From: an uncultured Pseudomonadales bacterium
GTDB lineage: Bacteria; Patescibacteriota; Microgenomatia; UBA1400; MFAQ01
Direction of reading: 5' to 3'
DNA: 64,000 bases
NCBI GenBank assembly: GCA_964439805.1
Contig: CAYTOI010000001.1
Coordinates: 3,573 to 67,572 of the forward strand
The position numbers were made by a program, and so were the translations under genes. Shown in pieces: positions 1,063 to 45,999 of this stretch; positions within the stretch are counted from its first letter, which is position 1; every line of letters begins with the position of its first letter. Below the pieces are notes generated by a model. It had not been told where the DNA came from, did no database searches, and saw only the letters and a list, made by a program, of their open reading frames with translations.

Positions 1063-1095
1063 TTTGAGTTTTTGGTTTTTTGAATTTTTGAGTTT
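1063..1095. repeat. degenerate copy of the 8-bp tandem repeat (TTGAGTTT/CTTGAGTT)n, intergenic upstream of 1108 ORF
   Basis: attttgagtttttggttttttgaatttttgagtttt seen directly; related to the copies at 2854, 4973, 36257 etc. Confidence 0.4.
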
Positions 1096-1107
1096 TATAA
1101 TATATCT

Positions 1108-1368
1108 ATGACAAAAAAGAAAACCCCTAAACAAGTTCATCTCAAAATACTAGCTCAAACACTTACTTTAGCCACTACTTCCCTAGGTTTAGTGGCCGCC
1201 TTAGCTTGGAACGAAGCCATTACTGAATACGTCAATGTCTACATCAAGCCATACTTTGCCAAAGGTTCAGGAGTTCTCTCTCTTTTTATCTACGCACTAT
1301 TAATTACTATTTTTACGGTCTTCGTTTCTTATCAGCTCACCAAAATCAGCAAAAAAATCGTCAAGTAA
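1108..1368 (+). CDS. small hypothetical membrane protein
   Basis: 86 aa ORF with two hydrophobic segments; no recognisable motif. Confidence 0.35.
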   Translation: MTKKKTPKQVHLKILAQTLTLATTSLGLVAALAWNEAITEYVNVYIKPYFAKGSGVLSLFIYALLITIFTVFVSYQLTKISKKIVK

Positions 1369-2413
1369 GATCCACCCTCTTTGCCTGCTTAAACATTTCT
1401 GCGTCTCCCAAATCAGCTGTTGTCACAATTACTTGTCTACCTTCGGTAACCCTCAATACTTCTTGCTTGTGGACTTCATCTAGTTCCGAAAAAATATCAT
1501 CAAGCAGTAGCAGTGCTTTTTTACCACCCTTTTCTTCAATAAAATAAATTTCACCCATTTTCATAGCAAGTACTGCCATTCTTTGCTCTCCACGAGATCC
1601 AAAAGTAGAAAGATTTCTACCATTCTCATTTACTATCAAATCATCTTTGTGTGGCCCCACCAGAGTGTATCCTACTGCCACTTCAGCATCTTTATACTGT
1701 AAAAGTCGAGACTCACTAATAGGGCTCATTTCATAAACCAGTTTTACATTTTTAAATAGCTCACTCCGTGCAAACAAATCATTTATATACTGCACCAATT
1801 CTTGTCTTTTTACAGTTACCGCGTTTCCATGCTTTATGAGTAGTGAGTCCCAAAAGGTCAACGCGTGTCTAGTAGCCGACCCATCTCTAATAGCATCCAG
1901 AATTTTATTTCTTCTTCTTAAAGCCTGTTCATATGTGGAAAGATTGTTTTCGTATATTTTATCCACCTGAACCAAAAGCCTATCCATAAATTTTCTTCGA
2001 ACATCAGCTGATCCACTAACAAGCTCAACGTCTTCAGGGCGAAATATAACTACCGGCACAAGCCCCAACAAATCTTTTCTTCTACGAGACACACCGTCAA
2101 TTAAATATTTTCTTTTATTGACTACCTTGCCCATTACCACCCCACCATTTACCATTACTTCTATTTCTTGAGTATCTCCATTTTCCCAATCAATATTTGC
2201 TTTTACTTTTCCCAGCTCAGTCCCAAACCTTACCATTTCTTCAGTGCGACGGGCTCTAAAGCTTTCTCCAATACTCATAAGATATACAGCTTCCAAAATA
2301 TTGGTTTTCCCTTTGGCATTTTCTCCAAAAATTACATTCACTCCACCATCAAATTCCAGTTTCTTATCTTCGTAATTTCTAAAGTCCGTTAGCTGTAAAT
2401 TTCTTATTCCCAC
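1361..2413 (-). CDS. recF: DNA replication and repair protein RecF
   Basis: 350 aa; N-terminal Walker A GENAKGKTNILEAV; SMC-like RecF architecture; Walker B LLLLDD. Confidence 0.85.
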   Translation of the reverse strand: MGIRNLQLTDFRNYEDKKLEFDGGVNVIFGENAKGKTNILEAVYLMSIGESFRARRTEEMVRFGTELGKVKANIDWENGDTQEIEVMVNGGVVMGKVVNKRKYLIDGVSRRRKDLLGLVPVVIFRPEDVELVSGSADVRRKFMDRLLVQVDKIYENNLSTYEQALRRRNKILDAIRDGSATRHALTFWDSLLIKHGNAVTVKRQELVQYINDLFARSELFKNVKLVYEMSPISESRLLQYKDAEVAVGYTLVGPHKDDLIVNENGRNLSTFGSRGEQRMAVLAMKMGEIYFIEEKGGKKALLLLDDIFSELDEVHKQEVLRVTEGRQVIVTTADLGDAEMFKQAKRVDLT

Positions 2414-2430
2414 GCCTAAAGTATATCAGT

Positions 2431-3324
2431 TTATTTTTGACAACCAGGGCAATAAAATGTCCCTCTCCCCCCAAGTTTTATTTTTACAATATTTTCTCCA
2501 CAATTTTTACAAGGCTTACCATCCTGTTTATAAGTCAAAAAGAAATTCTGATAAGTTCCTCCCAGACCTTTGGTATCAACATAATTAGCCGCACTTGCTC
2601 CTCCGCTCTTGATTCCCAGATCTATAACAAACTTTATTGCATCTCGCAAATCTTTTACCTCACCCTTGTTCAAAGTATCAGTTCTCCTAGTAGGCAATAT
2701 CTTTGCCATATTCAAGGCATCATTAACATAAATATTCCCCAAGCCACCCATCAGCTGTTGATCAAGTAACACAATTTTTATTGGTCTTTTTATTTTTTTC
2801 AAAACTCCCTCAAAATAACCCAAACTAAACTCCTCATCCACCACATCCGGCACTTGAGTTCTTGATTCCTTGAGTTCTTGAGTTCTAGAAATTATCTTCA
2901 TCCACCCAAAAGCTCTCATGTCATTAAAAAATAGTTTAGATTCATCTTCAAAACCTATCTCCACTCTCGTATGTTTGCTAGGCAATTCATTTACCCAATC
3001 TGCTGTCGGATGCCCACCAACAATTCTCTTCTCAAAATCTTGAATTTTATCAGTTTTTAGTTTTTGAGTTTTTTTAATTTTCTCCAAGAAAATTAACTGT
3101 CCCGTCATTTTAAGATGAACCATTAGCTTCTCGTCAAAATTTTCAAAATCAATATTAATTGTCTTTGCTCTTCTACTTACCTTGAGCACTTTCTTACCTA
3201 TCAAAACTTCCTTATTCCCCAAAAAATTCTTCTCACGATAAACCATAATGCTTCTCACAGCTTTCCCCTTAAGCACTTCATTTAATTGAAGTGAAATTGT
3301 TTCAACTTCTGGTAGCTCTGGCAT
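2431..3324 (-). CDS. mutM: formamidopyrimidine-DNA glycosylase (Fpg/MutM); carries in-frame octamer-repeat insert
   Basis: MPELPEVE N-terminus, H2TH region, C-terminal CxxC...CxxC zinc finger (CKNCGENI...YCPGCQ); insert TQELKESRTQ. Confidence 0.85.
   Translation of the reverse strand: MPELPEVETISLQLNEVLKGKAVRSIMVYREKNFLGNKEVLIGKKVLKVSRRAKTINIDFENFDEKLMVHLKMTGQLIFLEKIKKTQKLKTDKIQDFEKRIVGGHPTADWVNELPSKHTRVEIGFEDESKLFFNDMRAFGWMKIISRTQELKESRTQVPDVVDEEFSLGYFEGVLKKIKRPIKIVLLDQQLMGGLGNIYVNDALNMAKILPTRRTDTLNKGEVKDLRDAIKFVIDLGIKSGGASAANYVDTKGLGGTYQNFFLTYKQDGKPCKNCGENIVKIKLGGRGTFYCPGCQK
2854..2887. repeat. 8-bp tandem repeat (CTTGAGTT/CTTGATTC)x4 in frame inside fpg
   Basis: cttgagttcttgattccttgagttcttgagttct; sense strand AACTCAAG... 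encodes QELKESRTQ. Confidence 0.8.
3051..3082. repeat. degenerate octamer-repeat-like tract inside fpg
   Basis: cagtttttagtttttgagtttttttaatttt; encodes KKTQKLKTDK. Confidence 0.3.
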
Positions 3325-4434
3325 TTATTTTTCTGTCAAAACCCACTTAATGACTTTTTTTATTTCCACCAAAAATCTCTTCTCCGAAAAAAGCATTGCC
3401 CTCTTTTGGAGTTCCAACTTTTTCCAGCTTTTTCTCATTACCCTCTTGACGGCAAGTTGCAATGTTTTCTCCGAGGTATCGTTTACCAAAATACCTGTTA
3501 CTCCATCTATTACCGTCTCCTTAAATCCACCGCCGTTAAAGGCTATTACAGGGGTTCCAGCAGCCATAGATTCTACCGGAGTAATTCCAAAGTCTTCTTC
3601 TTTAGCAAGCGCAATAAACCCCTTAGCTTTTGCATAAAGTTTTGCAAGCTTAGCGTCATTCACCCTACCCAACAGCTCTACCTCCTTGATTTTCAACAAC
3701 TCATTCTTAATATTTGAAAACCCTACTGACTCACCAGAAATTTTCAATTTATACCCAAGTCCAATTACAGCCCTTGCCGCTTCTACAATTCCTTTTGCTC
3801 CCACCAACCTAGACACAATCAAAAAATAATCTTCTTTTTCAACTCCTTTTGCTTTTTGAATAATTTCTTCCACATTTACAGGGGGGTAAACAACTATAGA
3901 ATCTTTTCTATAAAATTTCCAAACTCTTTTCTTTACATTTTCTGAGTTAACTATCCAAAAATCCACCCTCTTAGAGCTCCACAAATCAAATATTCTCAAA
4001 AAATGATTTACTACAACTGCATATACTCGCACAATCCAAAATCTCTGCAAATTGATACTTGTCTCGTAACCATACAAAAATCTTGGTGGAGTGTGGCAAT
4101 AAGCAATCACCTTTGCTTTAGGATTAGTTCTAAACCCCCTCGCAAAAAAAGAGGAACAAGAGGTAATAATTAGGTCATACTCCCGAAGATCAATACTCCA
4201 CCAAACAAGAGGGGCCAAAAACCGAAGAGGACTATACAAATTAAAGTATTTCAACATCCACCCAAAACTACTTTCAACCACATTTCTATCTTTAAACTCC
4301 TTTGCACATTTTGAGTTTCTTAATACAAAAGAAGTATAAATCGGGGCTTCTGGATAAAGATTTGAGATTTGGCGCAACACTCTCTCTGCCCCACCAAACT
4401 CTTTTATATAATCATGAACTATAGCTACTTTCAT
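3325..4434 (-). CDS. glycosyltransferase family 4 (GT-B fold)
   Basis: 369 aa; C-terminal EDFGITPVESMAAGTPVIA motif typical of GT4 retaining glycosyltransferases. Confidence 0.7.
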   Translation of the reverse strand: MKVAIVHDYIKEFGGAERVLRQISNLYPEAPIYTSFVLRNSKCAKEFKDRNVVESSFGWMLKYFNLYSPLRFLAPLVWWSIDLREYDLIITSCSSFFARGFRTNPKAKVIAYCHTPPRFLYGYETSINLQRFWIVRVYAVVVNHFLRIFDLWSSKRVDFWIVNSENVKKRVWKFYRKDSIVVYPPVNVEEIIQKAKGVEKEDYFLIVSRLVGAKGIVEAARAVIGLGYKLKISGESVGFSNIKNELLKIKEVELLGRVNDAKLAKLYAKAKGFIALAKEEDFGITPVESMAAGTPVIAFNGGGFKETVIDGVTGILVNDTSEKTLQLAVKRVMRKSWKKLELQKRAMLFSEKRFLVEIKKVIKWVLTEK

Positions 4435-5372
4435 ACAAATATATCTACGACATCCTTTTCAAATTTTTCCTCAGGCAACCTATTAATGAGACTTTTAAAA
4501 TCTAGTTTTGTTAAAAGAACTACAACTTTAGCTTTATCATAATCAGACAACAGGCACTTTACCCAATCAAACTCCAAGGGAACCTCCCTAAAAATCTCAG
4601 CCAGATGTCTACTCTTAATCCCCATTTCTTTATCATCGAGAAGTAGTTGTCTCGTCCTAGGTTTTATTTTTTCACTTTCAATGTTTTTATATATTTCCTC
4701 TACGGAACCAAAGTCCTTAACCAGCTGAGTAGCAGTCACCTTACCGATACCTTTAACACCAGGAATATTATCAGATGAGTCTCCCATCAATCCTTTTAAG
4801 TCAACTATCTGCATTGGGTCAAGCTCATAAACTTCTTTAAACTTGTCTTCATCAAAAACCACAGACTGTGCATACTTGTTTTGTACTGGCAGGTAGACAA
4901 CTACCCTCTTACCATCGATTAGTTGCAGAGCGTCCCTATCTCCCGTCACTATTATCACCTGAACATCAATATCTTGAGTTCTTGAATCCTTGAGTTCTTG
5001 AGTTCTTTGCGACGCAACCCTAGCAATCGTCCCAATAATGTCATCAGCCTCATAACCCTCAATTCCGTATTGCGGAATGTTTAACGCAGAAACCACTTCC
5101 TTAGTTCGCTCTATTTGAGACACCAAAGATTCATCCATAGGACCTCTTTGGGCTTTATACTCAGCAAATTCTTTCTTTCGAAAAGTAGCACCCTTAACAT
5201 CCCAAGCCACTACTATGTGAGTTGGAGATAGTTTTTCTATAACCGAAAACAATAGAGTCGTAAAACCATAAACTGCGCCCACCAGTTCTCCACTCGGAGT
5301 AGTGAATGGTGGATAAGCATGAAACGCTCTGTGCAAAAGAGCGTTTCCATCTATAAGAATTAGTTTTTTCAT
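4431..5372 (-). CDS. 5'-3' exonuclease (Pol I N-terminal/FEN-like, stand-alone); carries in-frame octamer-repeat insert
   Basis: MKKLILIDGNALLHRAFHA start, GYEADD motif, helix-hairpin-helix region; insert QRTQELKDSRTQD. Confidence 0.75.
   Translation of the reverse strand: MKKLILIDGNALLHRAFHAYPPFTTPSGELVGAVYGFTTLLFSVIEKLSPTHIVVAWDVKGATFRKKEFAEYKAQRGPMDESLVSQIERTKEVVSALNIPQYGIEGYEADDIIGTIARVASQRTQELKDSRTQDIDVQVIIVTGDRDALQLIDGKRVVVYLPVQNKYAQSVVFDEDKFKEVYELDPMQIVDLKGLMGDSSDNIPGVKGIGKVTATQLVKDFGSVEEIYKNIESEKIKPRTRQLLLDDKEMGIKSRHLAEIFREVPLEFDWVKCLLSDYDKAKVVVLLTKLDFKSLINRLPEEKFEKDVVDIFV
4973..5006. repeat. 8-bp tandem repeat x4 in frame inside 5'-3' exonuclease gene
   Basis: cttgagttcttgaatccttgagttcttgagttct. 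Confidence 0.8.
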
Positions 5373-7229: not shown

Positions 7230-7242
7230 ATTTTGTTGTTTA

Positions 7243-7578: not shown

Positions 7579-7580
7579 TG

Positions 7581-8579: not shown

Positions 8580-8581
8580 AG

Positions 8582-8655
8582 TAGCTGGGGCGAGACTCGA
8601 ACTCGCGCTCTTCGGGATATGAATCCGATGCTTTAACCAACTAAGCTACCCAGCC
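8582..8655 (-). tRNA. tRNA with CAT anticodon (elongator Met most likely; Ile2-lysidine type not excluded)
   Basis: Reverse complement folds as cloverleaf: acceptor GGCTGGG/CCCAGCT (G1-U72), D arm GCTT/AAGC, anticodon arm TCGGA-TTCATAT-CCCGA, T arm GCGAG-TTCGAGT-CTCGC; no encoded CCA. Confidence 0.8.
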
Positions 8656-8809: not shown

Positions 8810-8812
8810 ACA

Positions 8813-9205: not shown

Positions 9206-9240
9206 TTGGTAGACCTAGAATGTTATAATAAACGCCATAT

Positions 9241-10462: not shown

Positions 10463-10475
10463 TTTATCATTGATG

Positions 10476-10549
10476 TGGGCCGACCTGGATTCGAACCAGG
10501 GACATCGAAGGTATAAGCTTCGCGCTCTAACCAGCTGAGCTATCGGCCC
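10476..10549 (-). tRNA. tRNA-Ile with TAT anticodon (decodes AUA)
   Basis: Reverse complement GGGCCGATAGCTCAGCTGGTTAGAGCGCGAAGCTTATACCTTCGATGTCCCTGGTTCGAATCCAGGTCGGCCCA: 7-bp acceptor, canonical D and T arms (GGTTCGAATCC), anticodon loop CTTATAC. Confidence 0.8.
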
Positions 10550-10611: not shown

Positions 10612-12933
10612 TCACAGCTTCGACCTTCTCTCTATCTCCTCTTCTACCTCATCAGCATCTCTCCCAAACTTTAATCTAGACAGTTCTTTTACCATCTTAG
10701 CCACTTCTGGACTACCAGCGGCTTTTTCTGCCTTAAGATCTCTACCGACATTCATCGAAAAAGGAGGAACCGGAGTACCATTAATAATTGTTTTAACATA
10801 GATATTTTGAGCTGGAACGTTACCCAGATCAGCTTCGTTAAACACAGGTTCAAAATCCTTAACCAGTATTTGAGCATCTTGAACACCTACTCTGTAGGTC
10901 ATCAAGGTACCGGTATTCCCAAAGATAGCATCTCTTACTTGCTGATCCAGCTGACTCACAAACTGGTTAGCCATAATTAACCCCATGCCATACTTTCTAA
11001 CCTCAGAAAGCATCTGGGCAAAATCTGGGGTGGCAAAGTTTTGAAACTCGTCGATATAAAAGTAAAAAGGTCTTCGTTGTTCCTTTGGAGTATCCTGTCG
11101 AGAAAGTGCCGCCGCCAAAATTTTTGGCACCACTAGGTTACCCAAGAAACTAGAGTCTTCTTCTCCCAACAAACCCTTAGCAAGTTTCAAAAACACAATT
11201 TTCCCAGTATCCATGGCATCTCTAAAATTTAGAGTACTCTTGGCCTGACCAATGATATTACGAATCATTTTGTTTGTAACAAAGCGACCAAACTTAGAAG
11301 AAATATAGTCCAAGGTCTCACTCTTATGAAAATCACTTGTTTGAGCTATCTGATCAGTCCAGTATCGTCGAACTATTGGATCTTTAACCAAAGGAAGAAT
11401 CTCTTGAACGTATTTGGGATCAGTTAAGACTCTGTTTACTTCCACAAAAGTTGCCCCGGGCACACAACCAACGGTAAGCATGGCGTTACGCACAGAATGC
11501 TCAAACCTGGCTCCAACCATACCAGTTCTATTCGGATCAAACAGCTTATACATCAAGTTAATAATTGCCGAAGCCACCTGATACATCTCGTCATAATTCA
11601 AAACTTCCATGATATTAAAGCCTACAGGTCTTTCCTTATCAGATGGATCAAACAGAACAACATCTTCAGCTCTCTCTGGTGGAACTAGTTCTAGTAACTC
11701 TTCAATACCATCACCATGAGGCTCCATAAAACAAAGTCCTCTTCCCGCTCTCATGTCTTGAATAATCATCGACTTCAAAAGTTCAGTTTTACCTGTACCA
11801 GTTCTACCTATGATGTACATGTGCTTCATACGGTCTGTTTCACCCATATAAATGTTTCGCTCTTGACCTCTATATACAGATCTTCCTAACAACATTCCTT
11901 CAGAAGGAAAACCACCAGTTGCAGGGGCGCTCTTCGCCGTCAGCCAATAAATGTGTGGTGTCTCGATAGTTTTGTTAGGCAAATGCCAAACCGCCGCCAA
12001 TTCATCTGTCGACAATACTGAGTTGTTTCCCCACATGTTCTGATATCGATAAATAATATCAAGCATGAAGGAGTGCTTAAACTTAATTTTGTTACTACTA
12101 AAACTGTTTTGATTGCTATTAAACTGAGAAAAAACTCCTTTAACGTTGCTTAAATTCGCCTTGGCTGTTTCTCCATTCGGAGAAATACTAACAAGTCTTA
12201 TACTGGTCAAAAAACCCTGCTTACCACACTTATTTGTAATTGCTTCCAGTTCCTGGGGATTCATCTTAAACTTGGCTTTTTCAGGATCAGATTCGTCTTT
12301 CTTCAATTTGGAGACATAGCCCAGTCCAGACTTGGACCACTCACTTTCAGCCGGAGAAATCACTATTTGTACAATCATCGCTTCGTCATCGCTAAACTTT
12401 GCAAGAGAAGAAGTAAGTGAAGATAAAAAGTCTACCGGCATTTCCTTAAACGATTTAAGTGGCTTAAAACTCTCATTTTTTAGCACCAATTCAGCAAACT
12501 CAACTTTTGTGTCTTTATAAAAGACATTGTATTCATCCACCTTCAAAACTTGAGAGCCGGGATAAGTTCCAACAACCATTTTTTCAATCAGCTCTACATT
12601 GTTTTTATGACAAGAAATATAAAACCTAATATCCTCCTTTTTACCTACAATTTCCAAAGACAAGTGTTGTTGTGCTGCAAACTTCTGCCAAAAACCACCT
12701 TTTTTAAGGGAATACAAAGAACTAAACATTTGTTCCACCGCCTCTACTTTTATCTCATTATCTTTTGGCACGGCTATCTCCAAAAGTACAAAATTCATAC
12801 TAACCTCTTCCCTATTTCTAAACCGAAGCCAAATCACAAAAATCATCCAACAAAAAACAATCAAGGCTGTGATTATTAAGATTCCAAAACCCAAAACTGC
12901 CAAATAAAGCATCAGGTCTCCAGTATTAATCAT
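10612..12933 (-). CDS. type IV secretion/conjugation-type P-loop ATPase (VirD4/TraG coupling-protein-like or VirB4-like)
   Basis: 773 aa; two N-terminal TM helices; Walker A IIGRTGTGKTELL; Walker B-like FYIDEFQNF; RKYGMGLIMANQFVSQLD motif typical of FtsK/HerA-superfamily T4SS ATPases. Confidence 0.55.
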   Translation of the reverse strand: MINTGDLMLYLAVLGFGILIITALIVFCWMIFVIWLRFRNREEVSMNFVLLEIAVPKDNEIKVEAVEQMFSSLYSLKKGGFWQKFAAQQHLSLEIVGKKEDIRFYISCHKNNVELIEKMVVGTYPGSQVLKVDEYNVFYKDTKVEFAELVLKNESFKPLKSFKEMPVDFLSSLTSSLAKFSDDEAMIVQIVISPAESEWSKSGLGYVSKLKKDESDPEKAKFKMNPQELEAITNKCGKQGFLTSIRLVSISPNGETAKANLSNVKGVFSQFNSNQNSFSSNKIKFKHSFMLDIIYRYQNMWGNNSVLSTDELAAVWHLPNKTIETPHIYWLTAKSAPATGGFPSEGMLLGRSVYRGQERNIYMGETDRMKHMYIIGRTGTGKTELLKSMIIQDMRAGRGLCFMEPHGDGIEELLELVPPERAEDVVLFDPSDKERPVGFNIMEVLNYDEMYQVASAIINLMYKLFDPNRTGMVGARFEHSVRNAMLTVGCVPGATFVEVNRVLTDPKYVQEILPLVKDPIVRRYWTDQIAQTSDFHKSETLDYISSKFGRFVTNKMIRNIIGQAKSTLNFRDAMDTGKIVFLKLAKGLLGEEDSSFLGNLVVPKILAAALSRQDTPKEQRRPFYFYIDEFQNFATPDFAQMLSEVRKYGMGLIMANQFVSQLDQQVRDAIFGNTGTLMTYRVGVQDAQILVKDFEPVFNEADLGNVPAQNIYVKTIINGTPVPPFSMNVGRDLKAEKAAGSPEVAKMVKELSRLKFGRDADEVEEEIERRSKL

Positions 12934-20683: not shown

Positions 20684-20750
20684 CCACTATTCAAACCCAG
20701 TCGCTAGAGATAGAATGACTTAAACCCCCTGCCCTTTCATACGTTTTGTA

Positions 20751-22938: not shown

Positions 22939-23253
22939 TCAAATCTTGTACTTAAGAAAAAACTTACTCTCTTTGTCAGAATCCTTATCAATTTCTTCAT
23001 TATCTTGATTCCTAGTGCTCTTGAGTTCTTGATTTCTTATGGGCTTCCCTTCTACCATCGCTTTCATCCAAAATCCCAAAGTCACGATAATGACTACAAG
23101 CATCACCCAAAAAATTACCTTTCTATCTTTAATCTTTTCCTCTTTTGATTTTTTCTTTTTTTCTTTTTTTTTAGGAACTGACTCAAGAGATTCTTCCTCT
23201 TCTTCTGTCATCTCATTGTTTGGAAACTTATTACTCATTATTTTTATATTCAA
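22939..23253 (-). CDS. small hypothetical membrane protein with octamer-repeat-derived segment
   Basis: 104 aa; Lys/Glu-rich N-terminus, one TM, NQELKSTRNQD segment; overlaps dehydrogenase 3' end. Confidence 0.25.
   Translation of the reverse strand: MNIKIMSNKFPNNEMTEEEEESLESVPKKKEKKKKSKEEKIKDRKVIFWVMLVVIIVTLGFWMKAMVEGKPIRNQELKSTRNQDNEEIDKDSDKESKFFLKYKI
23004..23037. repeat. degenerate octamer-repeat copy
   Basis: cttgattcctagtgctcttgagttcttgatttct. Confidence 0.4.
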
Positions 23254-35704: not shown

Positions 35705-36417
35705 TTAATCAAAAAATAAGCTATTCCAAAAAGGAAAATAGCCATTAATAATCTAAGCTGTTTATTGTATTTATGTTCCCACTCCTTCATCTCTACCACC
35801 TTTTTACCTCCTGCCATCACAAGCAAAATAACAAGTATTGGCAATATAAAAACAAAGTTATAGTACAAAAAATATATCAGCACCTGCCACATAGGTAGAC
35901 CTGACTTTGCCAAGTAAGAAGTCGTGCCAATATAAACAGGTAGCATACAAGGTGTCGAAAATGCCGTAGTCAATACTCCAACAACGACAGCCATTCCAGA
36001 ACCAGCTTTCATCAGAACCAAGTTAATTTTTTCATAGCCTTTACTACTCATTCTCAGGTGAATCGGAAAGTTATCCCAAAACACATCTTTAAATTGAATT
36101 AGTCCTGCCACTGCCAAAATTCCCGCCATTACATATTTAAATACACTGGCCAACCACAAACGTTGCAAGTAGAATGCCAATCCGTAAAAAAATAATCCCA
36201 AAACCAAATAAGTCACAAAAACACTAGCCAAATAAATCAACCCGTCTCTCAGTATTCTTGAGTTCTTGATTCCTTGAGTTCTTGAGTTCTTTTTTGGATC
36301 GTTTTGCGATCCAAAAACAAGTAAATATCCCAAAAAAGTAATCATCATCCCTATCCCACAGGGATTAAGTCCGTTTACCAAAGCCGCACCTGTAAGGGCT
36401 ACTAAATTTATACTCAT
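35701..36417 (-). CDS. CcdA/DsbD-family thiol-disulfide transporter membrane protein; carries in-frame octamer-repeat insert
   Basis: 238 aa, 6 TM, conserved Cys in TM1 (NPCGIG) and TM4 (TPCMLP); insert KNSRTQGIKNSR in a loop. Confidence 0.7.
   Translation of the reverse strand: MSINLVALTGAALVNGLNPCGIGMMITFLGYLLVFGSQNDPKKNSRTQGIKNSRILRDGLIYLASVFVTYLVLGLFFYGLAFYLQRLWLASVFKYVMAGILAVAGLIQFKDVFWDNFPIHLRMSSKGYEKINLVLMKAGSGMAVVVGVLTTAFSTPCMLPVYIGTTSYLAKSGLPMWQVLIYFLYYNFVFILPILVILLVMAGGKKVVEMKEWEHKYNKQLRLLMAIFLFGIAYFLIK
36257..36290. repeat. 8-bp tandem repeat x4 in frame inside ccdA-like gene
   Basis: cttgagttcttgattccttgagttcttgagttct. Confidence 0.8.
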
Positions 36418-37052
36418 TATTTTTTTAGCAACTCTTTCACCTTATCTAATACAAACGGAACTCCCACCTGTTCTCCGTTTATAAATATTGTTGGAGTTCC
36501 AGAAAGTTGCAAATTAGCAGCCAAATTGGCGTCAGCCTGAACAAAATCAGCCACTTCTTTTGACTTCATTGTCGCTTCAAATTTTGTTCCATCTAACCCG
36601 ATACTCTTTGCATACTCCACAAACAAGAGTTCAGGATTTTTGGATTCAGACCACACATCTTGTTTTTCAAACATCACTTCCATCATCTCCCAACCCTTAC
36701 CAAGCACTCTCCCAGCTTCTACTGCTTTTGCCGAAATAACCGAATATTTATGTACATTAGCAGGAAGAGGAAAGTGCCTCATCACAGTTTTTACTCCAGA
36801 CATTGTATCCAAATCTTTAAGAGCAACTTTTGCCACCTTACAAGAAGGACACTGGATGTCAGAAAAACTTACCACTGTAACTTTCGTCTCACCATTTTCT
36901 CGAACAAATCTTGCACCTTCCAAAAGTACGTTTTGGTCCACAGTTGTCGCTGAAGTTGTATTGCTACTCATTTTTGTTAAGCCGAAAATTGCAGCAATTA
37001 CCAGCACCACACTTCCCCCAATTATCAATAAAGTATTTTTTATATCAGTCAT
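36417..37052 (-). CDS. thioredoxin-fold thiol:disulfide oxidoreductase (DsbA-like), membrane-anchored
   Basis: 211 aa; N-terminal TM; CPSC active site. Confidence 0.7.
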   Translation of the reverse strand: MTDIKNTLLIIGGSVVLVIAAIFGLTKMSSNTTSATTVDQNVLLEGARFVRENGETKVTVVSFSDIQCPSCKVAKVALKDLDTMSGVKTVMRHFPLPANVHKYSVISAKAVEAGRVLGKGWEMMEVMFEKQDVWSESKNPELLFVEYAKSIGLDGTKFEATMKSKEVADFVQADANLAANLQLSGTPTIFINGEQVGVPFVLDKVKELLKK

Positions 37053-37438
37053 TTTTTTGTCGCTTTTAATAACGCTCTATAAGCCAAAGTAGCACACTTC
37101 ATTCTACCTGCATTTATCTCTCCACCCATCAATTCTACAATTCCCTCCTCACTAATTTTTTCAATCTCAGAAATTTTCATCCCTATTACTTTTTCCGAAA
37201 GCATACTAGCAGCGGCTGTTGAAATTGCACACCCTACCCCTCGCCACCTAATTTCTTTGATTACCAGCTCTTCATCATCTTGAGTTCTTGATTCCTTGAT
37301 TCCTTGAGTTCTAATCTGTATTTGTATTACATCCCCACAACTAGAATTCGACTCATTTATAGTCACATCCGCCCCCTCCATCTCCCCAAAATTTCTAGGG
37401 TTTTTGTAGTGATCAATTATTTCATCGCGGTAGTCCAT
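37049..37438 (-). CDS. sufU: Fe-S cluster scaffold SufU/NifU-like; carries in-frame octamer-repeat insert
   Basis: 129 aa; conserved Cys in SCGD, GCAIS, KCATLA; insert RTQGIKESRTQDDEE. Confidence 0.8.
   Translation of the reverse strand: MDYRDEIIDHYKNPRNFGEMEGADVTINESNSSCGDVIQIQIRTQGIKESRTQDDEELVIKEIRWRGVGCAISTAAASMLSEKVIGMKISEIEKISEEGIVELMGGEINAGRMKCATLAYRALLKATKK
37279..37312. repeat. 8-bp tandem repeat x4 in frame inside sufU
   Basis: cttgagttcttgattccttgattccttgagttct. Confidence 0.8.
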
Positions 37439-37441: not shown

Positions 37442-38734
37442 CTATATAAATACTTTTGGTACTTCTTTAATTTTTTCTACCAAATAGTTAATTTCTTCTT
37501 TTGTATTGTAAACATAAAAAGTGGCTCTCACCATAGCAGGAATCCCAAAACTTGTAACAAGTGGCGCAGCACAATGCTGACCGGACCGAACCGCAATTCC
37601 AAAATTATTTAGCACCTGAGCCACATCATGAGAGTGCACCCCTTTTACATTAAAGGCCAACGCCCCACCTCTTTCTTCTGGGTCTCTCACTCCATAAACC
37701 TCCACCAAACCTTCATCCTCCAGCACTTTAAATTTTTCCAAAGCATAACCAATTAATTCTTTCTCGTGTTCTCTCACATTGTCCATACCCAAGTTTTCCA
37801 AATAATCCACTGCCGCTCCCAAACCAATTATTCCAGCAATGTCAGGTGTCCCTGCTTCAAACTTACTAGGAATCTCTGCCCAGGTAGTATTTTCCAGCCG
37901 TACTTCTCCAATCATGTCTCCTCCGTACAAAAATGGGTCCATTTTGTTTAGTAAATCTTTCTTTCCCCAAAGTACTCCCGTCCCTGTTGGTCCCAGCATT
38001 TTGTGACCAGAAAAAGCAACAAAGTCAACTGATAATTTTGTAACATCCAATTTCATATGTGGCACCATTTGGGATGCATCCAAAACAATTACAGCTTCAG
38101 GATTTTTCGCTTTTACTTTCTCTACCAACATTTTAATATCTGGCAAAGTTCCAATTGCATTACTTGCTCCAGTCAAAGCAAACAACCTCACTTTCCCATC
38201 AGCAATCAAATCATCCATACTACCAATTAACACATTATCTTGAGTTCTTGAGTTCTTGAGTTCTTGAGTTTTTTCGACCAACTTTCCTTTTTGGTCGACT
38301 TCAACCACCCTAAATTCTGCACCTTTTTCTTTGCAAAGCACCTGCCAAGGAACAAAGTTTGAGTGATGCTCCAATCGCGTCACCAAAACTGCGTCCCCCT
38401 CTTTAATATTTTTCTTTCCCCAGGAATACATCACCAAGTTAAGCGATTCGCTAGCGTTTCTCGTAAAGATTATTTCTTCAGTTCGTCCTCCAATAAACTT
38501 CGCAACTTTTTCTCTGGCCTCGTCTACCATTTTTGTAGACTCTACTGACATGTCGTAAACTCCTCGGTGAATATTGGCATTATTGTTTCTATAATAGTCA
38601 TCCATTGCTCTCAAAACACTCTCAGGTTTCTGACTTGTGGCTCCACTATCCAAATAAACCAAATCTTGCCCATTAACTTTGCGCTTCAAAATCGGAAAAT
38701 CCTGCCTTATTTTATTTACGTCTAACATGTTCAT
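37442..38734 (-). CDS. sufS: cysteine desulfurase SufS; carries in-frame octamer-repeat insert
   Basis: 430 aa; PLP-lysine SGHKMLGPTG; C-terminal catalytic Cys region; insert KTQELKNSRTQD. Confidence 0.85.
   Translation of the reverse strand: MNMLDVNKIRQDFPILKRKVNGQDLVYLDSGATSQKPESVLRAMDDYYRNNNANIHRGVYDMSVESTKMVDEAREKVAKFIGGRTEEIIFTRNASESLNLVMYSWGKKNIKEGDAVLVTRLEHHSNFVPWQVLCKEKGAEFRVVEVDQKGKLVEKTQELKNSRTQDNVLIGSMDDLIADGKVRLFALTGASNAIGTLPDIKMLVEKVKAKNPEAVIVLDASQMVPHMKLDVTKLSVDFVAFSGHKMLGPTGTGVLWGKKDLLNKMDPFLYGGDMIGEVRLENTTWAEIPSKFEAGTPDIAGIIGLGAAVDYLENLGMDNVREHEKELIGYALEKFKVLEDEGLVEVYGVRDPEERGGALAFNVKGVHSHDVAQVLNNFGIAVRSGQHCAAPLVTSFGIPAMVRATFYVYNTKEEINYLVEKIKEVPKVFI
38239..38272. repeat. 8-bp tandem repeat (perfect CTTGAGTT x4) in frame inside sufS
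   Basis: cttgagttcttgagttcttgagttcttgagtttt. Confidence 0.85.
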
Positions 38735-39423: not shown

Positions 39424-39428
39424 CTTCT

Positions 39429-39932
39429 TTATTTTACCCCCAAAAAACCTTTAATAATCAAATTTTCTGCCTCAGCTCTGTTTATCCCCCTTGTCTCCAA
39501 ATAAAACAATTGGTCCTCATCTATTCTCCCTACGCTAGCCGAATGACTTGCTTTAACTTCATTATTTAATATCTCTAGTTCCGGCTCAGCTACCGCCATA
39601 CTTTTATCATCAAGTAGTAGTAGCTTCATCGACAAAAAACTATCACTTTGTTTTGCCCCTTCTGCAATTTTCACCAATCCCTTAATTTTTACCCTTGCTC
39701 CACCTCTTACCACCCCTTTTACATCAACTCTGCACTTTGTTTTCCCTACTTTGTGTTCGGACAAAAGATTGATTACATAGTCCCCCTCAGTCTCTGCCAC
39801 AACAACACCAAGTAGCTCTTTCTCTTCCCCTTTGTCATTCATAACCACTTTAAAGTCATAGACCCCAGGTCTTTCAATTACAAACCTCTCAATATCTTGA
39901 GTTCTTGAGTTTTGGAAGTTTTGAGTTTTCAT
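39429..39932 (-). CDS. SufD-like Fe-S assembly protein (short, C-terminal region only); N-terminus made of octamer repeat
   Basis: 167 aa; C-terminal DEDQLFYLETRGINRAEAENLIIKGF matches SufB/SufD C-terminal signature; starts MKTQNFQNSRTQD. Confidence 0.55.
   Translation of the reverse strand: MKTQNFQNSRTQDIERFVIERPGVYDFKVVMNDKGEEKELLGVVVAETEGDYVINLLSEHKVGKTKCRVDVKGVVRGGARVKIKGLVKIAEGAKQSDSFLSMKLLLLDDKSMAVAEPELEILNNEVKASHSASVGRIDEDQLFYLETRGINRAEAENLIIKGFLGVK
39896..39932. repeat. octamer-repeat tract spanning the sufD-like start codon
   Basis: cttgagttcttgagttttggaagttttgagttttcat. Confidence 0.7.
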
Positions 39933-39934
39933 TT

Positions 39935-41365: not shown

Positions 41366-42107
41366 ATTTTTTATATCCAGTTTTTCCCAAACTATCTATT
41401 AATTCAGCGCCACCCTCATCAACCACCAGACCTTTCTTCAAAACCACCACCTTATCAACATTCACCAAGTTCAACATTTTTTGGTAATGAGTAATAAGTA
41501 TCACGGTCATTCCAATTTCTTTGCTAAGTTTATTAATTTCTTCAGCCACCAAATTAAGAGCATCTAGATCCAACCCACTATCTGTCTCATCCAATATAGC
41601 CATTTTTGGTTTTAAGACTCTCATTTGCAAAATCTCAATCTTCTTCTTTTCACCACCACTAAACCCCTCATTTATTCCACGAGTCAGCAAATCATCACTA
41701 ACTCTAAGCTCCTTGGCAATCGCCTCTACTTGTCTCTTAACATCTATCGCTTTGACAATCTCTCCTTTTGCTCTAAGAGAAGCGACTAGTAATTCTTTTA
41801 CTGTCACTCCAGGGACCGAAACTGGATATTGAAAAGCCATAAAGACTCCCTCTTTTGCTCTCTCGTCAGGGGTCATCTCGTTTATTTTTTTACCCATCCA
41901 AAAAATTTCTCCTGATGTTATTTCATAGGCTGGGTTTCCCATTATGGTATTGGATAGAGATGATTTTCCTGAACCATTTGGACCCATCAAGGCTACAATC
42001 TTTCCTGCCTCAATCTCCAAATTTATCCCATTCAATATTTCTTTCCCCTCAACCTTCACCTTTAAATTCTTAATTATCAGTAAATCATTATCTTGAGTTC
42101 TTTTCAT
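41358..42107 (-). CDS. sufC: Fe-S cluster assembly ATPase SufC
   Basis: 249 aa; Walker [14 protein letters not shown] signature LSGGEKKK, Walker [11 protein letters not shown]; starts MKRTQDND derived from octamer repeat. Confidence 0.9.
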
Positions 42108-42139
42108 AATTTTGAGTTTTTGATTTTAGAGTTTTTTAC
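42092..42139. repeat. octamer-repeat-like tract spanning sufC start codon and 5' leader
   Basis: cttgagttcttttcataattttgagtttttgattttagagtttttt. Confidence 0.55.
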
Positions 42140-42522: not shown

Positions 42523-42563
42523 ATACTTGGACTATTATACTCCAAGTATCTTCAGGATTCAAT

Positions 42564-43202
42564 CTAAAACAACCCCATCTGCATTTCGGCAGGTTTTTCT
42601 TCCGCTACTATCTCTGGATAAGAAAAATCTACCACTATCTCCCTATACTCATTCCATCTGTCTTTGAACTTCAACATTTTATTCTTCATGGCAAAGTCAT
42701 AAACTTTTGTAGTCACTTCCACGTCCATTTCGCAATATTTTTTCAAATTAGCAAGACTAGCTGGGTCTCCCATATTCCACCACTTAACCGCATCCAATCC
42801 ACCAGCAATCTTCCCCGCCCCAATTGTCTCTTTTGCCACACTATCCAGTTTTACCCTATGACCAAACACTTTTCTTATCTCTTCCAAAATATCAAAGTGT
42901 TTCAACTTAGCAAAATCCCCTCTTGTATAAACCCCATTCATTGCCGGATTATCAAAACCAAAGGAGTTGTAGCCAATAATTCTGTCTGCCTCTTCAAACC
43001 AACTCCACATATTTTCAAAATCACTTTCCCAAAAACTTTTCATTTCTCCAGAAATTTCATTCCCGTTTTCATCCACAACTCTCCTGTAAGCAGAAACTAT
43101 TGAAATCCCTAAGTCAGCAGGGTTATTTGTACTAATATCATCAAATATTTTCTTTGTCTCAATGTCGTAAATGACCTCAACCTTATTTCCTTTATTTGCC
43201 AT
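42564..43202 (-). CDS. DnaQ-like (DEDD) 3'-5' exonuclease domain protein
   Basis: 212 aa; exo motifs IYDIET, GYNSFGFD, YCEMDV. Confidence 0.5.
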   Translation of the reverse strand: MANKGNKVEVIYDIETKKIFDDISTNNPADLGISIVSAYRRVVDENGNEISGEMKSFWESDFENMWSWFEEADRIIGYNSFGFDNPAMNGVYTRGDFAKLKHFDILEEIRKVFGHRVKLDSVAKETIGAGKIAGGLDAVKWWNMGDPASLANLKKYCEMDVEVTTKVYDFAMKNKMLKFKDRWNEYREIVVDFSYPEIVAEEKPAEMQMGLF

Positions 43203-43237
43203 AAGAAATATATTAAACCATCAAACCTATTTTATTT

Positions 43238-43753: not shown

Positions 43754-43763
43754 CTACTATTAT

Positions 43764-45158
43764 TTATAACTCAATTTGCATATTTAAGTTTGGCATTATT
43801 ACATCGATGTCGCCCAATTCGTTTTTAATCTTTTCTTTCAATACAAGCCTTGGCAAATCTTCACCATGAATCAAAACCACCTTCTTTAACCCCTTTATTT
43901 TGCCAACCCAAGACATCAATTGTTCTTGGTCAGCGTGTGAGCTCATGCTCTTTATTTCCTCCACCTGAGCCCTTACCTCAATATGATTTCCCCAAATATT
44001 AATATTTTTCTCACCATCTTTAATTTGTCTTCCAAGTGTGCCGACCGCCTGATAACCCACAAAAACAATTATAGTTTTTGGGTCTTCCAAGTAGTTTATT
44101 GCGTGATGAATTATTCTCCCCCCTGTCATCATTCCACTTCCAGCCACAATTACTTTGGTGCCTGAATAGTTTTTTATTTGTTTACTCTTTTCTACAGTGT
44201 CACATACCACTAGTCCAGGAAAATCAAATGGATCATCAGTTTTTACCTGATCCTTTAATTTTTTACTAAAAAACTCTGGGTAATCTTTAAATATTTCTGT
44301 TGCCTTTATAGCCATCGGAGAATCCAAAAACACCGGTGTATCTTCTCTTATCTCCTTTTGTTTTTTCAGCTGGTCAAACAAATACAAAACTTCTTGAGCT
44401 CTTTCTATAGAAAAGGTAGGTATCATTACCACTCCACCCACTCGCTCCGCTTCTTGGACAATCTCCGCAATCCTTTCTGCTTCATTTCTAACTCCATGGA
44501 CCTCATCCCCATAAGTCGACTCTAGTAAAGTGAAATCTGCTTCTTTGAAGGTTTCTGTTGGGAGTAGTAATGGCTCTGGAGTATTTCCCAGGTCACCACA
44601 AAAAACAATTTTTTTACCACTAGAAATTTCTTCTACCAAAATACTACTAGAACCTATTATGTGCCCCGCATCATACATAGTTAATCTAAAGTCCCCTACC
44701 GTAAAAGGCACATGATAATCCACTATTTGAACTTTTTTCAAAAAACTCTGAACATCATCTTCTGTGTACAAAGTGTCAGTAGCATCTTCTGCTGCAATTT
44801 TCGCTGAGTCCATCAAAACCAATTCTGTTAAGGCTTTTGTAGGGGCGTTCATAAAAACAGGCCCATCAAATCCATACCTGACCAATGTCGGAAGTCTTCC
44901 ACAGTGATCCAAGTGCGCATGAGTAAGAACAACAGCATTTAAACTCCCAAAATCAATCTCTGGTTTTGCAAAATTTAATTTATCATCCTCCTTTAATCCC
45001 TGAAACATTCCACAATCCACCATTATTCCCGTACTCTTTCCGGTAAGTAAATAACAAGAACCAGTTACTGTCCCCGCTGCACCCAAAAACTTTAGTTTCA
45101 TATCATCCAGTGTATCAGAATGAGCCTCGTCATTGCGAGGAACGAAGTGACGTGGCAA
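43764..45158 (-). CDS. metallo-beta-lactamase/beta-CASP family ribonuclease (RNase J/CPSF-like)
   Basis: HAHLDHCG (HxHxDH) motif, beta-CASP motifs downstream; true start probably internal Met MKLKFLGAAG. Confidence 0.7.
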   Translation of the reverse strand: MPRHFVPRNDEAHSDTLDDMKLKFLGAAGTVTGSCYLLTGKSTGIMVDCGMFQGLKEDDKLNFAKPEIDFGSLNAVVLTHAHLDHCGRLPTLVRYGFDGPVFMNAPTKALTELVLMDSAKIAAEDATDTLYTEDDVQSFLKKVQIVDYHVPFTVGDFRLTMYDAGHIIGSSSILVEEISSGKKIVFCGDLGNTPEPLLLPTETFKEADFTLLESTYGDEVHGVRNEAERIAEIVQEAERVGGVVMIPTFSIERAQEVLYLFDQLKKQKEIREDTPVFLDSPMAIKATEIFKDYPEFFSKKLKDQVKTDDPFDFPGLVVCDTVEKSKQIKNYSGTKVIVAGSGMMTGGRIIHHAINYLEDPKTIIVFVGYQAVGTLGRQIKDGEKNINIWGNHIEVRAQVEEIKSMSSHADQEQLMSWVGKIKGLKKVVLIHGEDLPRLVLKEKIKNELGDIDVIMPNLNMQIEL

Positions 45159-45181
45159 TCTAAATATAATAGAATGGAGTC

Positions 45182-45934
45182 ATGACCTGCCCTCAATGCT
45201 CACAAACCCTGAGCACTCTAGAAATCTACACCACTGATGGTAAAGACAAAATAATTGAAGAATGCCTAAATTGTGGAGGTCATTTTTTGGAAAACTACTT
45301 AGTAAATTTCATATCAGTAGAGACAGCGAGAAACATTGACTCTGTTCTCCCAAAAACAAAAAACCAAAGTATTGGCGACATAAAATGCCACAAGTGTGGG
45401 CAACAAATGTTTGCCATTTCAGAAGAACTACCCAATACTGTTACCGCCTACAACTGCCCAAATGGACACGGTGACTTTTTCCCTAAAGACCAACTCCTAC
45501 TTTTCAAAAAAGCTCAAGAAGCAAAAATTAACTATCATAAGCTTTGGGGCATACCTATTAAAACCGTTTTTGCTGTAATTATTCCTCTTTTTATTGTTTT
45601 TTCCTCAGTTACCATCTTACCTTCGGTAGTAAAAGAACTAAACAAAAACCAAGACGAAAGAGTCAAAGCATCAGAAATTTTAACTACTCCACTTATCACC
45701 CCGCTGTCTGATTCTGAAGTTTTAATTTCTTTTTCTACAATCAATTTGGTTGCTACCGACATTATTTTTACAAGCGGAATGCAAAAAACCTTAACCGTTT
45801 CAGCCAAGCCAGACAAAAACCATCTTGTGGGTGTAAAATATCTTCCTCCAACCACCACCTTTAAATACATGATTGTCATAGACCCCAAAGGCAAAAACAT
45901 CAGAACTTCCGAATACACCTTCTCCACCCCCTAA
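45182..45934 (+). CDS. hypothetical zinc-ribbon membrane protein
   Basis: 250 aa; two CxxC pairs N-terminal, one TM, extracytoplasmic C-terminal domain. Confidence 0.4.
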   Translation: MTCPQCSQTLSTLEIYTTDGKDKIIEECLNCGGHFLENYLVNFISVETARNIDSVLPKTKNQSIGDIKCHKCGQQMFAISEELPNTVTAYNCPNGHGDFFPKDQLLLFKKAQEAKINYHKLWGIPIKTVFAVIIPLFIVFSSVTILPSVVKELNKNQDERVKASEILTTPLITPLSDSEVLISFSTINLVATDIIFTSGMQKTLTVSAKPDKNHLVGVKYLPPTTTFKYMIVIDPKGKNIRTSEYTFSTP

Positions 45935-45963
45935 AAAACTAATTTGCTGAATTATTTTCATTA

Positions 45964-45999
45964 TTTTGAGTTTTTGAGTTCTTGAGTTCTTGAGTTTTT
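45964..45999. repeat. octamer-repeat tract in 5' leader immediately upstream of prmC start
   Basis: ttttgagtttttgagttcttgagttcttgagttttt then ATG at 46000. Confidence 0.75.

Follow-up and report, generated by a model that had tools for sequence, protein, structure and literature searches.

Tandem octamer tracts of one replication-strand orientation in and between the genes of Candidatus Collierbacteria and related Microgenomates

What places a tandem eight-nucleotide repeat in frame within the housekeeping genes of a small bacterial genome, and what keeps it in a single orientation? The question is posed by a stretch of 64,000 nucleotides (the window) on contig CAYTOI010000001.1 of assembly GCA_964439805.1, which is deposited as an uncultured Pseudomonadales bacterium and has the GTDB lineage Patescibacteriota, Microgenomatia, UBA1400, MFAQ01. 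A first-pass annotation, made from the sequence alone, described its tracts of the octamer AACTCAAG as a proliferating simple-sequence element of an undescribed kind, tolerated within open reading frames (ORFs) in one orientation only on account of stop codons. Here we report that the polarity of the tracts follows the replication strand and that many of them occupy orthologous sites in related species. We tentatively read the tracts, with a confidence that falls somewhat short of even, as a dispersed, DNA-level, replication-polar simple-sequence family of Collierbacteria and close Microgenomates, of old age and slow turnover and sifted by selection, the encoded peptides being passengers.

Tracts of the window and their polarity

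Twelve CTTGAGTT-type tracts occur in the 64 kb and every one of them stands on the plus strand as read, the minus strand reading AACTCAAG. That they are real and non-random, as first claimed, is borne out by a search with the 16-mer CTTGAGTTCTTGAGTT, which at up to 3 mismatches has 24 matches in the window, all on the plus strand, against 1.33 expected, a number reached in 0 of 100 shuffles. Tandem Repeats Finder reports period-8 arrays at 1062, 2853, 3040, 4972, 23019, 36255, 37278, 38238, 39895, 42110 and 45964, and the period-8 arrays lie in eight ORFs and three leaders. When units are counted by in-register octamer chaining there are four each at 2853, 4973, 36257, 37279, 38239 and 45965, two clean units next to degenerate ones at 39896, and tracts of degenerate units at 1079, 3055, 23020 and 42111; the same count finds no comparable tract in the opposite orientation anywhere in the window. 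The typical element measures ~32-36 bp and consists of (AACTCAAG)4 between AAG and AT. Exact copies of the octamer number 21 on the minus (leading) strand versus 2 on the lagging strand, and none is isolated, all 21 minus-strand copies in the window lying within or adjoining tracts. Tract density is ~1 per 6 kb, with clustered spacing: seven sites at 36.2-46 kb, a single degenerate one at 5-36 kb and none at 46-64 kb. The sole tract-like sequence with the plus strand as sense is a 15-nt direct repeat (TCCACAACTCAAACA, twice) at 61917-61946 (plus strand) in the plus-strand ORF 61671-62081, which reads AACTCAAA as sense in a lagging-strand gene and is not an octamer array.

The individual sites and their hosts, in window coordinates, are as follows:

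1062..1096, minus strand: degenerate A-type tract AAAACTCAAAAATTCAAAAAACCAAAAACTCAAAA in the divergent region between gene 170-1036 (minus, NAD(P)HX dehydratase) and the small plus-strand ORF 1108-1368; on the plus strand TATAAT-N6-ATG comes next
2853..2886, minus strand: four-unit tract in fpg (ORF 2431-3324), ~aa 147-158, read SRTQELKESRTQ
3040..3073, minus strand: degenerate A-type tract in the fpg N-terminal domain, ~aa 84-95, KKTQKLKTDKIQD
4972..5007, minus strand: four-unit tract in the 5'-3' exonuclease (ORF 4431-5372), aa 122-134, QRTQELKDSRTQD
23012..23038, minus strand: degenerate tract IRNQELKSTRNQD in a small predicted membrane ORF, 22939-23253
36255..36291, minus strand: four-unit tract in a CcdA/SfLAP-like membrane protein (ORF 35701-36417), aa 43-54, in another phase, KKNSRTQGIKNSR
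37278..37312, minus strand: four-unit tract in SufU (ORF 37049-37438), aa 43-54, IRTQGIKESRTQD
38238..38270, minus strand: perfect four-unit tract in SufS (ORF 37442-38734), aa 155-166, KTQELKNSRTQD
39895..39927, minus strand: tract forming codons 2-13 of a short SufD-like gene (ORF 39429-39932), MKTQNFQNSRTQD
42092..42099, minus strand: single unit in sufC codons 3-6 (MKRTQDN)
42109..42136, minus strand: degenerate A-type tract that takes up the intergenic Rrf2-sufC spacer as far as the sufC ATG
45964..45999, minus strand: four-unit tract between the plus-strand Zn-ribbon gene 45182-45934 and the methyltransferase gene 46000-46773, antisense to both

Pfam identifies the host genes as Fpg, 5'-3' exonuclease, SfLAP/CcdA-like, NifU_N (SufU), Aminotran_5 (SufS), SUFBD_core (the short SufD) and ABC_tran (SufC), in agreement with the original assignments. 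Eight tracts are in frame in minus-strand genes, namely fpg (two), the exonuclease, the CcdA-like gene, SufU, SufS, the SufD-like gene and SufC. The fpg tract at 2853..2886 falls between the N-terminal domain (Pfam end at aa 142) and the H2TH domain (start at aa 159); the 5'-3' exonuclease gene is a stand-alone one. The SufD-like gene at 39429-39932 encodes 167 aa and covers no more of the SUFBD core domain than its C-terminal 138 positions, a short form also found in relatives (157-174 aa). A tract had been listed at 42092, and a unit is indeed present there in sufC codons 3-6, but it is a single one, with the degenerate tract beside it in the leader. On the sense strand three units make 24 nt and each frame yields the same cyclic peptide NSRTQELK without a stop, just as the first-pass annotation had stated; the complement of the tract carries TGA in every unit.

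The plus strand is C-rich across the window (GC skew -0.14 to -0.40) regardless of gene direction, and the sign of the skew remains unchanged through blocks of plus-strand genes such as 17134-22928; the skew is therefore linked to replication and not to transcription. The G-rich strand of a replichore is the leading strand. Here it is the minus strand, which bears ~70% of the window genes, and AACTCAAG sits on this leading strand, that is, on the lagging-strand template. In the window and 57 related loci (related loci carry L numbers below) we count a total of 91 tracts, and 91 of 91 have AACTCAAG on the locally G-rich strand. Forty-four are internal to long ORFs and 47 lie at ORF ends or are intergenic; the internal ones are sense in leading-strand genes in all 44 cases and in a lagging-strand gene in none. 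Coding DNA on the lagging-gene strand amounts to ~16-30%, whereas the share of lagging-strand genes is ~27% in the window, ~11% in the seven regions for which the database supplies gene calls, and no more than 33% by crude ORF calling. At a lagging fraction of 0.2 the observed 0 of 44 has a P of ~5e-5, with the caveat that many of the tracts are orthologous copies. Furthermore, three independent intergenic tracts with lagging-strand genes on both sides are still in the leading-strand orientation:

Window 45965 (minus strand): between the Zn-ribbon and methyltransferase genes, also in L112
L022/L042/L043/L029 locus: intergenic tract between lagging-strand genes
L063: intergenic tract between lagging-strand genes, upstream of an EamA transporter

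The counts of the pentamer AACTC are 72 for the leading and 123 for the lagging strand, so that the orientation of the tracts opposes the local base composition. As for the earlier attribution of the strand bias to stop codons, the reverse orientation does put TGA in frame, but the lack of tracts in lagging-strand genes together with the three antisense intergenic tracts makes stop-codon avoidance alone insufficient: the polarity of the tracts follows the replication strand.

Orthologous sites in relatives and octamers in other lineages

The closest homologues of the window SufS are those of Candidatus Collierbacteria (candidate phyla radiation, CPR; Microgenomates), which places the host in that group, and the exact window SufS was found on one contig in the homologue search. 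In an alignment of 120 SufS homologues the tract occupies a variable loop. Relatives at 90% identity (412 aa) are devoid of both tract and loop, other homologues carry RTQELKESRTQD or RTQELKNSRTQD at the loop, degenerate versions such as KTQKFENSKTQN and KNQKIKNSKTQS occur, and one homologue has a single unit (ERTQD). Opposite the tract the alignment has a gap in B. subtilis SufS (5xt5), and the exonuclease tract is a ~12-residue insert relative to M. smegmatis Pol I (6vde); orthologue alignments and solved structures hence bear out the proposal that these are lineage-specific in-frame inserts. The further proposal that they lie in loops is consistent with an AlphaFold2 model of the window SufS (mean predicted local distance difference test score, pLDDT, 86), in which residues 155-167 are predicted as coil with a pLDDT of 66-69, and <50 at 157-160. 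That the tracts add hydrophilic loops to enzymes is true for part of them; about half lie instead at gene (stop/start) junctions, in 5' leaders or at N-termini. Each of the three codon phases is represented among the 44 internal coding tracts (22:13:9), evidence against selection for any one peptide, and we lean, though with less than even assurance, towards tract-encoded peptides that are passengers and not functional modules.

A scan of one genome per species for AACTCAAG-RANYCAAG-AACTCAAG returned at least 109 loci, and among the matches listed about half belong to Collierbacteria, to a metagenome-assembled genome (MAG) labelled Woesebacteria and to MAGs labelled Pseudomonadales with Collierbacteria genes. 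The latter 'uncultured Pseudomonadales' MAGs (CAZPFY, CAYHNG, CAYSAM, CAZUFH and CAZDXN) have Collierbacteria-type genes, 38-47% GC and strong skew, and their labels look wrong. We took the syntenic suf region from seven Collierbacteria species; in codon alignments of eight species the SufS, SufU and CcdA-like tracts are at orthologous positions with the same 36-nt length. The SufU site is orthologous in six of seven relatives, in G-type or A-type form, the exonuclease site in L090 and the intergenic tract at 45964..45999 in L112; the CcdA-like site holds a tract in L034, L111, L112 and L116 and is empty in L110 and L113-L115. G-type units (AACTCAAG) are found in the window, L113 and L114 and A-type units (AACTCAAA, AAAATCAA) in L110, L111, L112, L115 and L116. 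Both types occur together in one genome, for example in MFAQ (L031 and L109 versus L116) and in L112, which leaves the idea of a genome-specific unit variant co-evolving with a factor weak. Four units are the mode in coding (36 of 44) as well as non-coding tracts (25 of 47), and the order AACTCAAG-AACTCAAG-GAATCAAG-AACTCAAG comes back in different genomes and at loci that are unrelated, indicative of copying or conversion between loci and not of independent mutation.

The sites turn over in a patchy fashion. The SufS loop is deleted in L112 and L116 and holds unrelated sequence in L113. A tract fills the TktN-TktC junction in L111 and L112, in the former as an exact stop-tract-ATG, whereas the window and L113 have no tract and the genes overlap as ATGATTAA. 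At the sufC start the single unit of the window compares with four units in L112 (MMNRTQELKESRTQDSGLL), an in-frame step of 24 nt; L037 also has four, and most relatives have none (MLKIKNLKV). In L110, L112 and L115 the sufB-sufD tract is left untranslated as a spacer; in the window and L113 it is translated as an N-terminal extension. Orthologues differ by three units (24 nt) or by compensated lengths, all in frame, and no frameshifted allele was seen among those compared; the length variation foreseen by the first-pass annotation thus exists between species. Since the same tracts stand at orthologous positions in independent NCBI, ENA and JGI assemblies, they are not assembly artefacts. The notion of a proliferating element is unsupported or incomplete: the tracts are orthologous across species with 72-90% SufS identity, so that the tracts are old and not simply spreading now. 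Their history is one of inheritance at orthologous sites, decay from AACTCAAG to AACTCAAA and gain or loss between species, and their sites are permissive places, i.e. gene junctions, leaders, N-termini, inter-domain linkers and loops.

Further short in-frame insert families use the same permissive sites in Collierbacteria relatives. At the sufC start of L113 (7309-7335) a GC-rich hairpin, CGGGCGACCGCAGAGGGTCGCCCCTAC, encodes RATAEGRPY (YRATAEGRPYTN), and in SufU of L110 (11471-11496) and L115 (11494-11519) GGATTGCCACGCTYCGYTCGCAATGA encodes GLPRSVRN; both are absent from the window. Two other relatives deserve mention: the 16S rRNA gene of L058 (2104-4320) carries a ~700-nt insertion just before its 3' end, and a group I intron adjoins a tract-bearing ORF in L003 (6833-7027).

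Beyond these genomes, single long arrays are found among the matches listed in Paenibacillus, Bacteroidales, Arthrobacter and others. Among viral contigs, one match to the real 24-mer compares with one and three for two composition-matched control trimers; because the controls match as often, single arrays in unrelated phyla probably represent the ordinary repeat background, and a universally special octamer is unsupported. Multi-locus families, among the matches listed, are confined to Collierbacteria with the Woesebacteria-labelled MAG, Acidobacteriota, Chthoniobacterales and the viral contig L117; the positions conserved across families are A-A-C-x-C-A-A-G. In Acidobacteriota MFD MAGs (L002, L008, L010, L023, L025, L039, L041, L051, L060, L069, L083 and L104) the tract starts 0-15 nt past the stop codon of a co-oriented gene (26 nt in L083), often with a degenerate inverted copy 50-130 nt downstream, and its orientation is uniform on each of two long contigs (4 of 4 on contig_6338, 3 of 3 on contig_3524). 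Chthoniobacterales and one Acidobacteriota locus have a hairpin with tract arms (-39 to -47 kcal/mol) around the conserved core AGTCYCGCGCCGAGGTYCGCAT, for which Rfam gave no match. In L117 (IMGVR_UViG_3300001533_002010; 59% GC) seven AAGAACNC arrays, the longest of 16 units, share a single strand; the majority take up the gap from one ORF to the next in the same direction, and after several of them heptamer arrays (AATAATC, AAGAATT) immediately precede the following start codon. The elements of these two groups are:

L047 4010-4170, L102 4200-4360, L079 6810-6970 and L059 3' end, soil MAGs: hairpin element with arms of (AACTCAAG)n and its inverted copy and loop core AGTCYCGCGCCGAGGTYCGCAT
L117 583-642, 1678-1722, 6104-6146, 7910-8042, 9075-9167, 11772-11800 and 12691-12775: AAGAACNC arrays

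Alternative readings of the tracts

If the tracts form a simple-sequence family of the kind that we favour, replication slippage and/or ectopic conversion between copies would keep the arrays homogeneous, and the process that seeds or preserves them would act on one replication strand only. Selection would then act as a filter: a sense tract that is free of stops and starts and gives a hydrophilic disordered peptide and an unstructured RNA would be harmless in leading-strand genes, whereas the reverse orientation inside ORFs would be lethal. In this genome, where Shine-Dalgarno sites are few, some copies appear to have taken on the role of leader or intercistronic spacer, and on the other strand some may act as -35-like boxes for leaderless lagging-strand genes. 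The sense RNA, (AACUCAAG)4, has no start or stop codons and is predicted to be unstructured (0 kcal/mol), the antisense RNA folds at -6.9 kcal/mol, and the tract DNA has a predicted fold of 0 kcal/mol on both strands.

A number of points weigh against this reading. No mechanism for the dispersal or the polarity of the tracts came to light, and a bias of 91:0 exceeds known slippage asymmetries; hairpin-driven, orientation-dependent repeat instability is unsupported, both DNA strands folding at 0 kcal/mol. The four-unit mode in non-coding DNA and the perfect arrays at old sites suggest DNA-sequence selection or active copying, and the octamer families in Acidobacteriota, Verrucomicrobiota and a viral contig hint at a shared trans-acting partner, not at neutral junk. 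The strength of the bias itself is to be read with some reserve, as many of the 91 tracts are orthologous copies, which makes the independent events fewer than 91, and the fraction of lagging-strand genes in the pattern-selected loci rests on crude ORF calls. A bolder alternative, which we judge unlikely, is a hitherto undescribed strand-tied process that writes or needs ~32-bp AACTCAAG arrays on the lagging-strand template, either as templated or single-stranded-DNA (ssDNA) insertion or as a new polar 4 x 8-bp DNA signal embedded in frame in essential genes of a spacer-poor 1-Mb genome. If this were true, the arrays in Acidobacteriota, Verrucomicrobiota and the viral contig would point to a widespread partner.

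Somewhat less likely still is a functional polar signal akin to systems already known, in which an array of four 8-bp units would be read directionally by a protein of replication, recombination or segregation, or would be bound by proteins of the integration host factor (IHF)/HU type; a compact genome would then be forced to carry the signal inside ORFs. The FtsK-orienting polar sequences (KOPS), the architecture-imparting sequences (AIMS) and Chi are 8-bp motifs skewed to the leading strand, often located in genes and fairly evenly spread as single copies. The tracts share with them an octamer that is strongly leading-strand-skewed (21 versus 2 octamers; 91 of 91 tracts), and this absolute polarity, maintained against base composition, the 8-bp unit with its preferred number of four in coding and non-coding DNA alike, the persistence of perfect arrays at ancient orthologous sites and the density in the window all speak for a signal. 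Single sites turn over while the family persists, as is the case for KOPS and Chi. The GAATCAAG-AACTCA variant may also be likened to the IHF consensus WATCAANNNNTTR. By analogy, the arrays of Geobacter have been interpreted as sites for global regulators or IHF/HU (PMC2700814). On the other hand, KOPS and Chi act as single dispersed copies whereas the tracts have no isolated octamers, for which reason a single motif of this type is rejected; furthermore, the arrays are strongly clustered, many sites have decayed to the A-type without replacement, and we identified no candidate binding protein. The window itself has neither an FtsK nor an AddAB gene.

A role at the level of the RNA appears doubtful, to a greater degree than the polar signal. 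Repeats of GAACUCAA could be bound by a protein with two KH domains such as NusA, for which 4 nt per KH domain would result in an 8-nt unit, or the tracts could serve as unstructured C/A-rich leaders and spacers that guard untranslated stretches from termination or R-loops or aid (re)initiation independent of a Shine-Dalgarno sequence; the copies within ORFs would then be tolerated extras. Most window genes are devoid of a Shine-Dalgarno sequence, which favours such a role. Clear AAGGAG/GGAGG motifs are seen at only a few genes (47086-47910, 47963-48940, 48963-50837 and 50838-51593), while many first genes on both strands have a TATAAT-like box 5-7 nt from the start codon (for example 1108, 24229-25209, 25254, 25797, 42564-43202, 46018 and 59297-59602), an arrangement, TATAAT-N6-ATG, that suggests many leaderless mRNAs. 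About half of the tracts occupy intercistronic spacers, 5' leaders, the first codons of a gene or the nucleotides directly past a stop codon, the Tkt junction of L111 being an exact stop-tract-ATG; the sense RNA is unstructured and free of starts and stops, the Acidobacteriota tracts follow stop codons at 0-15 nt, and the seven AAGAACNC arrays of L117 mostly fill consecutive intercistronic spacers. The RNA in complex with M. tuberculosis NusA KH1-KH2 (PDB 2ASB) is presumably GAACUCAAUAG, which would be an 8/8 match to the unit, and the NusA idea leans on this match.

The orientation of the tracts does not follow transcription, however, because sense tracts are absent from lagging-strand genes and leaders, and three tracts are antisense between lagging-strand genes. 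In the ribosomal RNA operon (rrn) leaders of L058 and L046, both relatives, a boxA-like TTAACAAG precedes GAAACAGCAAGC, but GAACUCAA was not found in them, and no boxA was found upstream of the tracts. In the Verrucomicrobiota and Acidobacteriota form the tract is paired in a long hairpin and so is not unstructured there. Pairing with 16S rRNA (for which we presumed a CUUGAGU in helix 21/22, and a AAACUCAAAGGAAUU look-alike) is excluded, since the 16S rRNA of a relative lacks CTTGAGT and has a canonical anti-Shine-Dalgarno sequence. No known RNA family was matched in the window or in more than 50 loci.

On the opposite strand the tracts occasionally resemble promoter elements. A promoter-like TTGAGT-18-TATAAT at 45982-46011 (plus strand) precedes N6-ATG (46018) and a putative leaderless methyltransferase mRNA, and a tract-derived TTGAGT lies 17-18 bp upstream of a -10 element of a lagging-strand gene in the window (45982-46011), L063, L084, L098 and L109; in most of these cases the region is divergent and the tract doubles as the leader of a leading-strand gene. 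As TTGAGT-17/18-TATAAT-N6-ATG occurs only beside lagging-strand genes, and the mirror arrangement never at leading-strand genes, we reject a general -35 box as the primary role of the tracts and regard this use as occasional co-option.

We consider it improbable that the tracts are relics or half-sites of mobile elements, either miniature inverted-repeat transposable elements (MITEs) or insertion sequences (ISs), whose ends would be tandem octamer transposase sites and which would insert into ssDNA at the fork in the manner of IS200/IS605. Replication-strand bias is a hallmark of ssDNA transposition of the IS200/IS605 type. The discrete ~36-bp size and the recurrence of the internal variant pattern at unrelated loci are consistent with such elements, as is the cross-phylum Verrucomicrobiota and Acidobacteriota form, where an inverted pair with the tract as one arm encloses the core AGTCYCGCGCCGAGGTYCGCAT. 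The octamer arrays of Geobacter might offer an analogy, as they are described as paired in inverted orientation, a fixed distance away from IS elements (PMC2700814). The Collierbacteria tracts, by contrast, have neither an inverted partner nor a hairpin; the window has no associated transposase, no target-site duplication is evident beyond the AAG of the unit itself, and the old orthologous sites show no sign of recent insertion. Finally, it is scarcely credible that NSRTQELK-type peptides are selected as linkers or interaction motifs with the likeness of the DNA as a by-product, for although the peptides are hydrophilic, lie in loops or termini and are kept at orthologous positions, about half of the tracts are non-coding, coding copies use three phases, close orthologues such as the 412-aa SufS clade (90% identity) are without a tract, the nucleotide sequence is more uniform than the peptide and a replication-strand lock has no explanation at the protein level.

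Known repeat systems and the biology of the Microgenomates

The first-pass annotation knew of no described element of this kind. The family itself holds up in that respect, as the CTTGAGTTCTTGAGTT 16-mer was not found in the literature searched. The nearest systems differ from it in one or more properties. The short tandemly repeated repetitive (STRR) sequences of cyanobacteria are said, in work by Mazel et al. in 1990, to be dispersed, lineage-specific tandem 7-nt units of function unknown; they are mainly intergenic and are not known to be strand-locked or in frame in housekeeping enzymes, unlike the Collierbacteria tracts. Rickettsia palindromic elements reportedly sit within essential genes of a reduced genome without breaking the frame, at permissive surface positions (work of Ogata et al. 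in 2000). Multicopy in-frame insertion in ORFs is common to them and the tracts; they are, however, 100-150 bp and palindromic, whereas the tracts are tandem octamers of 32-36 bp without predicted structure. Like the simple-sequence repeats of contingency loci, the tracts consist of short tandem units within or just 5' of ORFs and vary in copy number, but steps of 24 nt keep the frame and the hosts are housekeeping, not surface or restriction, genes. Repetitive extragenic palindromic sequences, bacterial interspersed mosaic elements and MITEs are palindromes, unlike the Collierbacteria tracts, which are solo and half in ORFs; the Verrucomicrobiota and Acidobacteriota form does fit. DNA uptake sequences are present on both strands, in contrast to 0 of 91 tracts on the C-rich strand, intergenic ones included.

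The closest parallel is in Geobacter metallireducens, for which four-unit hepta- and octanucleotide arrays, 49 of a GGACCGG-type and 48 of a GTTGCTYN-type, are reported within and between genes, in passages that propose, without test, the binding of global regulators or IHF/HU and leave the function unknown (PMC2700814). As described there, they resemble the tracts in having ~four tandem units of 7-8 nt in dozens of dispersed copies between and within genes, so that the kind is not wholly undescribed. The unit and the phylum are different, AACTCAAG being unrelated to GGACCGG, GTTGCTYN and the STRR heptamers, and the Geobacter octamers are, in the passages concerned, inverted pairs with nearby IS elements, which resemble the Acidobacteriota and Verrucomicrobiota form and not the solo Collierbacteria tracts. 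The passages on the arrays mention neither replication-strand polarity nor in-frame reading (PMC2700814). The Collierbacteria family is set apart by its unit, its full replication-strand lock and its frequent in-frame reading in housekeeping genes.

Two neighbouring genes of the window are recorded here for completeness. A tRNA-Ile gene at 10475-10549 (minus strand) has the anticodon TAT (UAU). Most bacteria decode AUA with a lysidine-modified CAU tRNA, and a UAU isoacceptor is unusual. Adjoining it, 10612-12933 encodes a protein of 773 aa with the TrwB/TraG-D domains of type IV secretion coupling proteins; this may be left over from an integrated conjugative element or may belong to a DNA-uptake system.

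For the organisms themselves the tracts make up an appreciable, patterned share of a very small genome and change essential enzymes, among them Fe-S assembly proteins, Fpg and the 5'-3' exonuclease. Being stop-free in every sense frame they inflate ORF calls, and they blur the assignment of start codons and mimic lineage-specific inserts in protein alignments and structure models. Conversely, they are candidate markers for strain typing and for replichore orientation in Microgenomates MAGs. To our knowledge the replication and chromosome biology of CPR bacteria is almost unstudied; in these bacteria the full strand lock implies either an undescribed strand-specific way of making repeats or an undescribed polar chromosomal signal.

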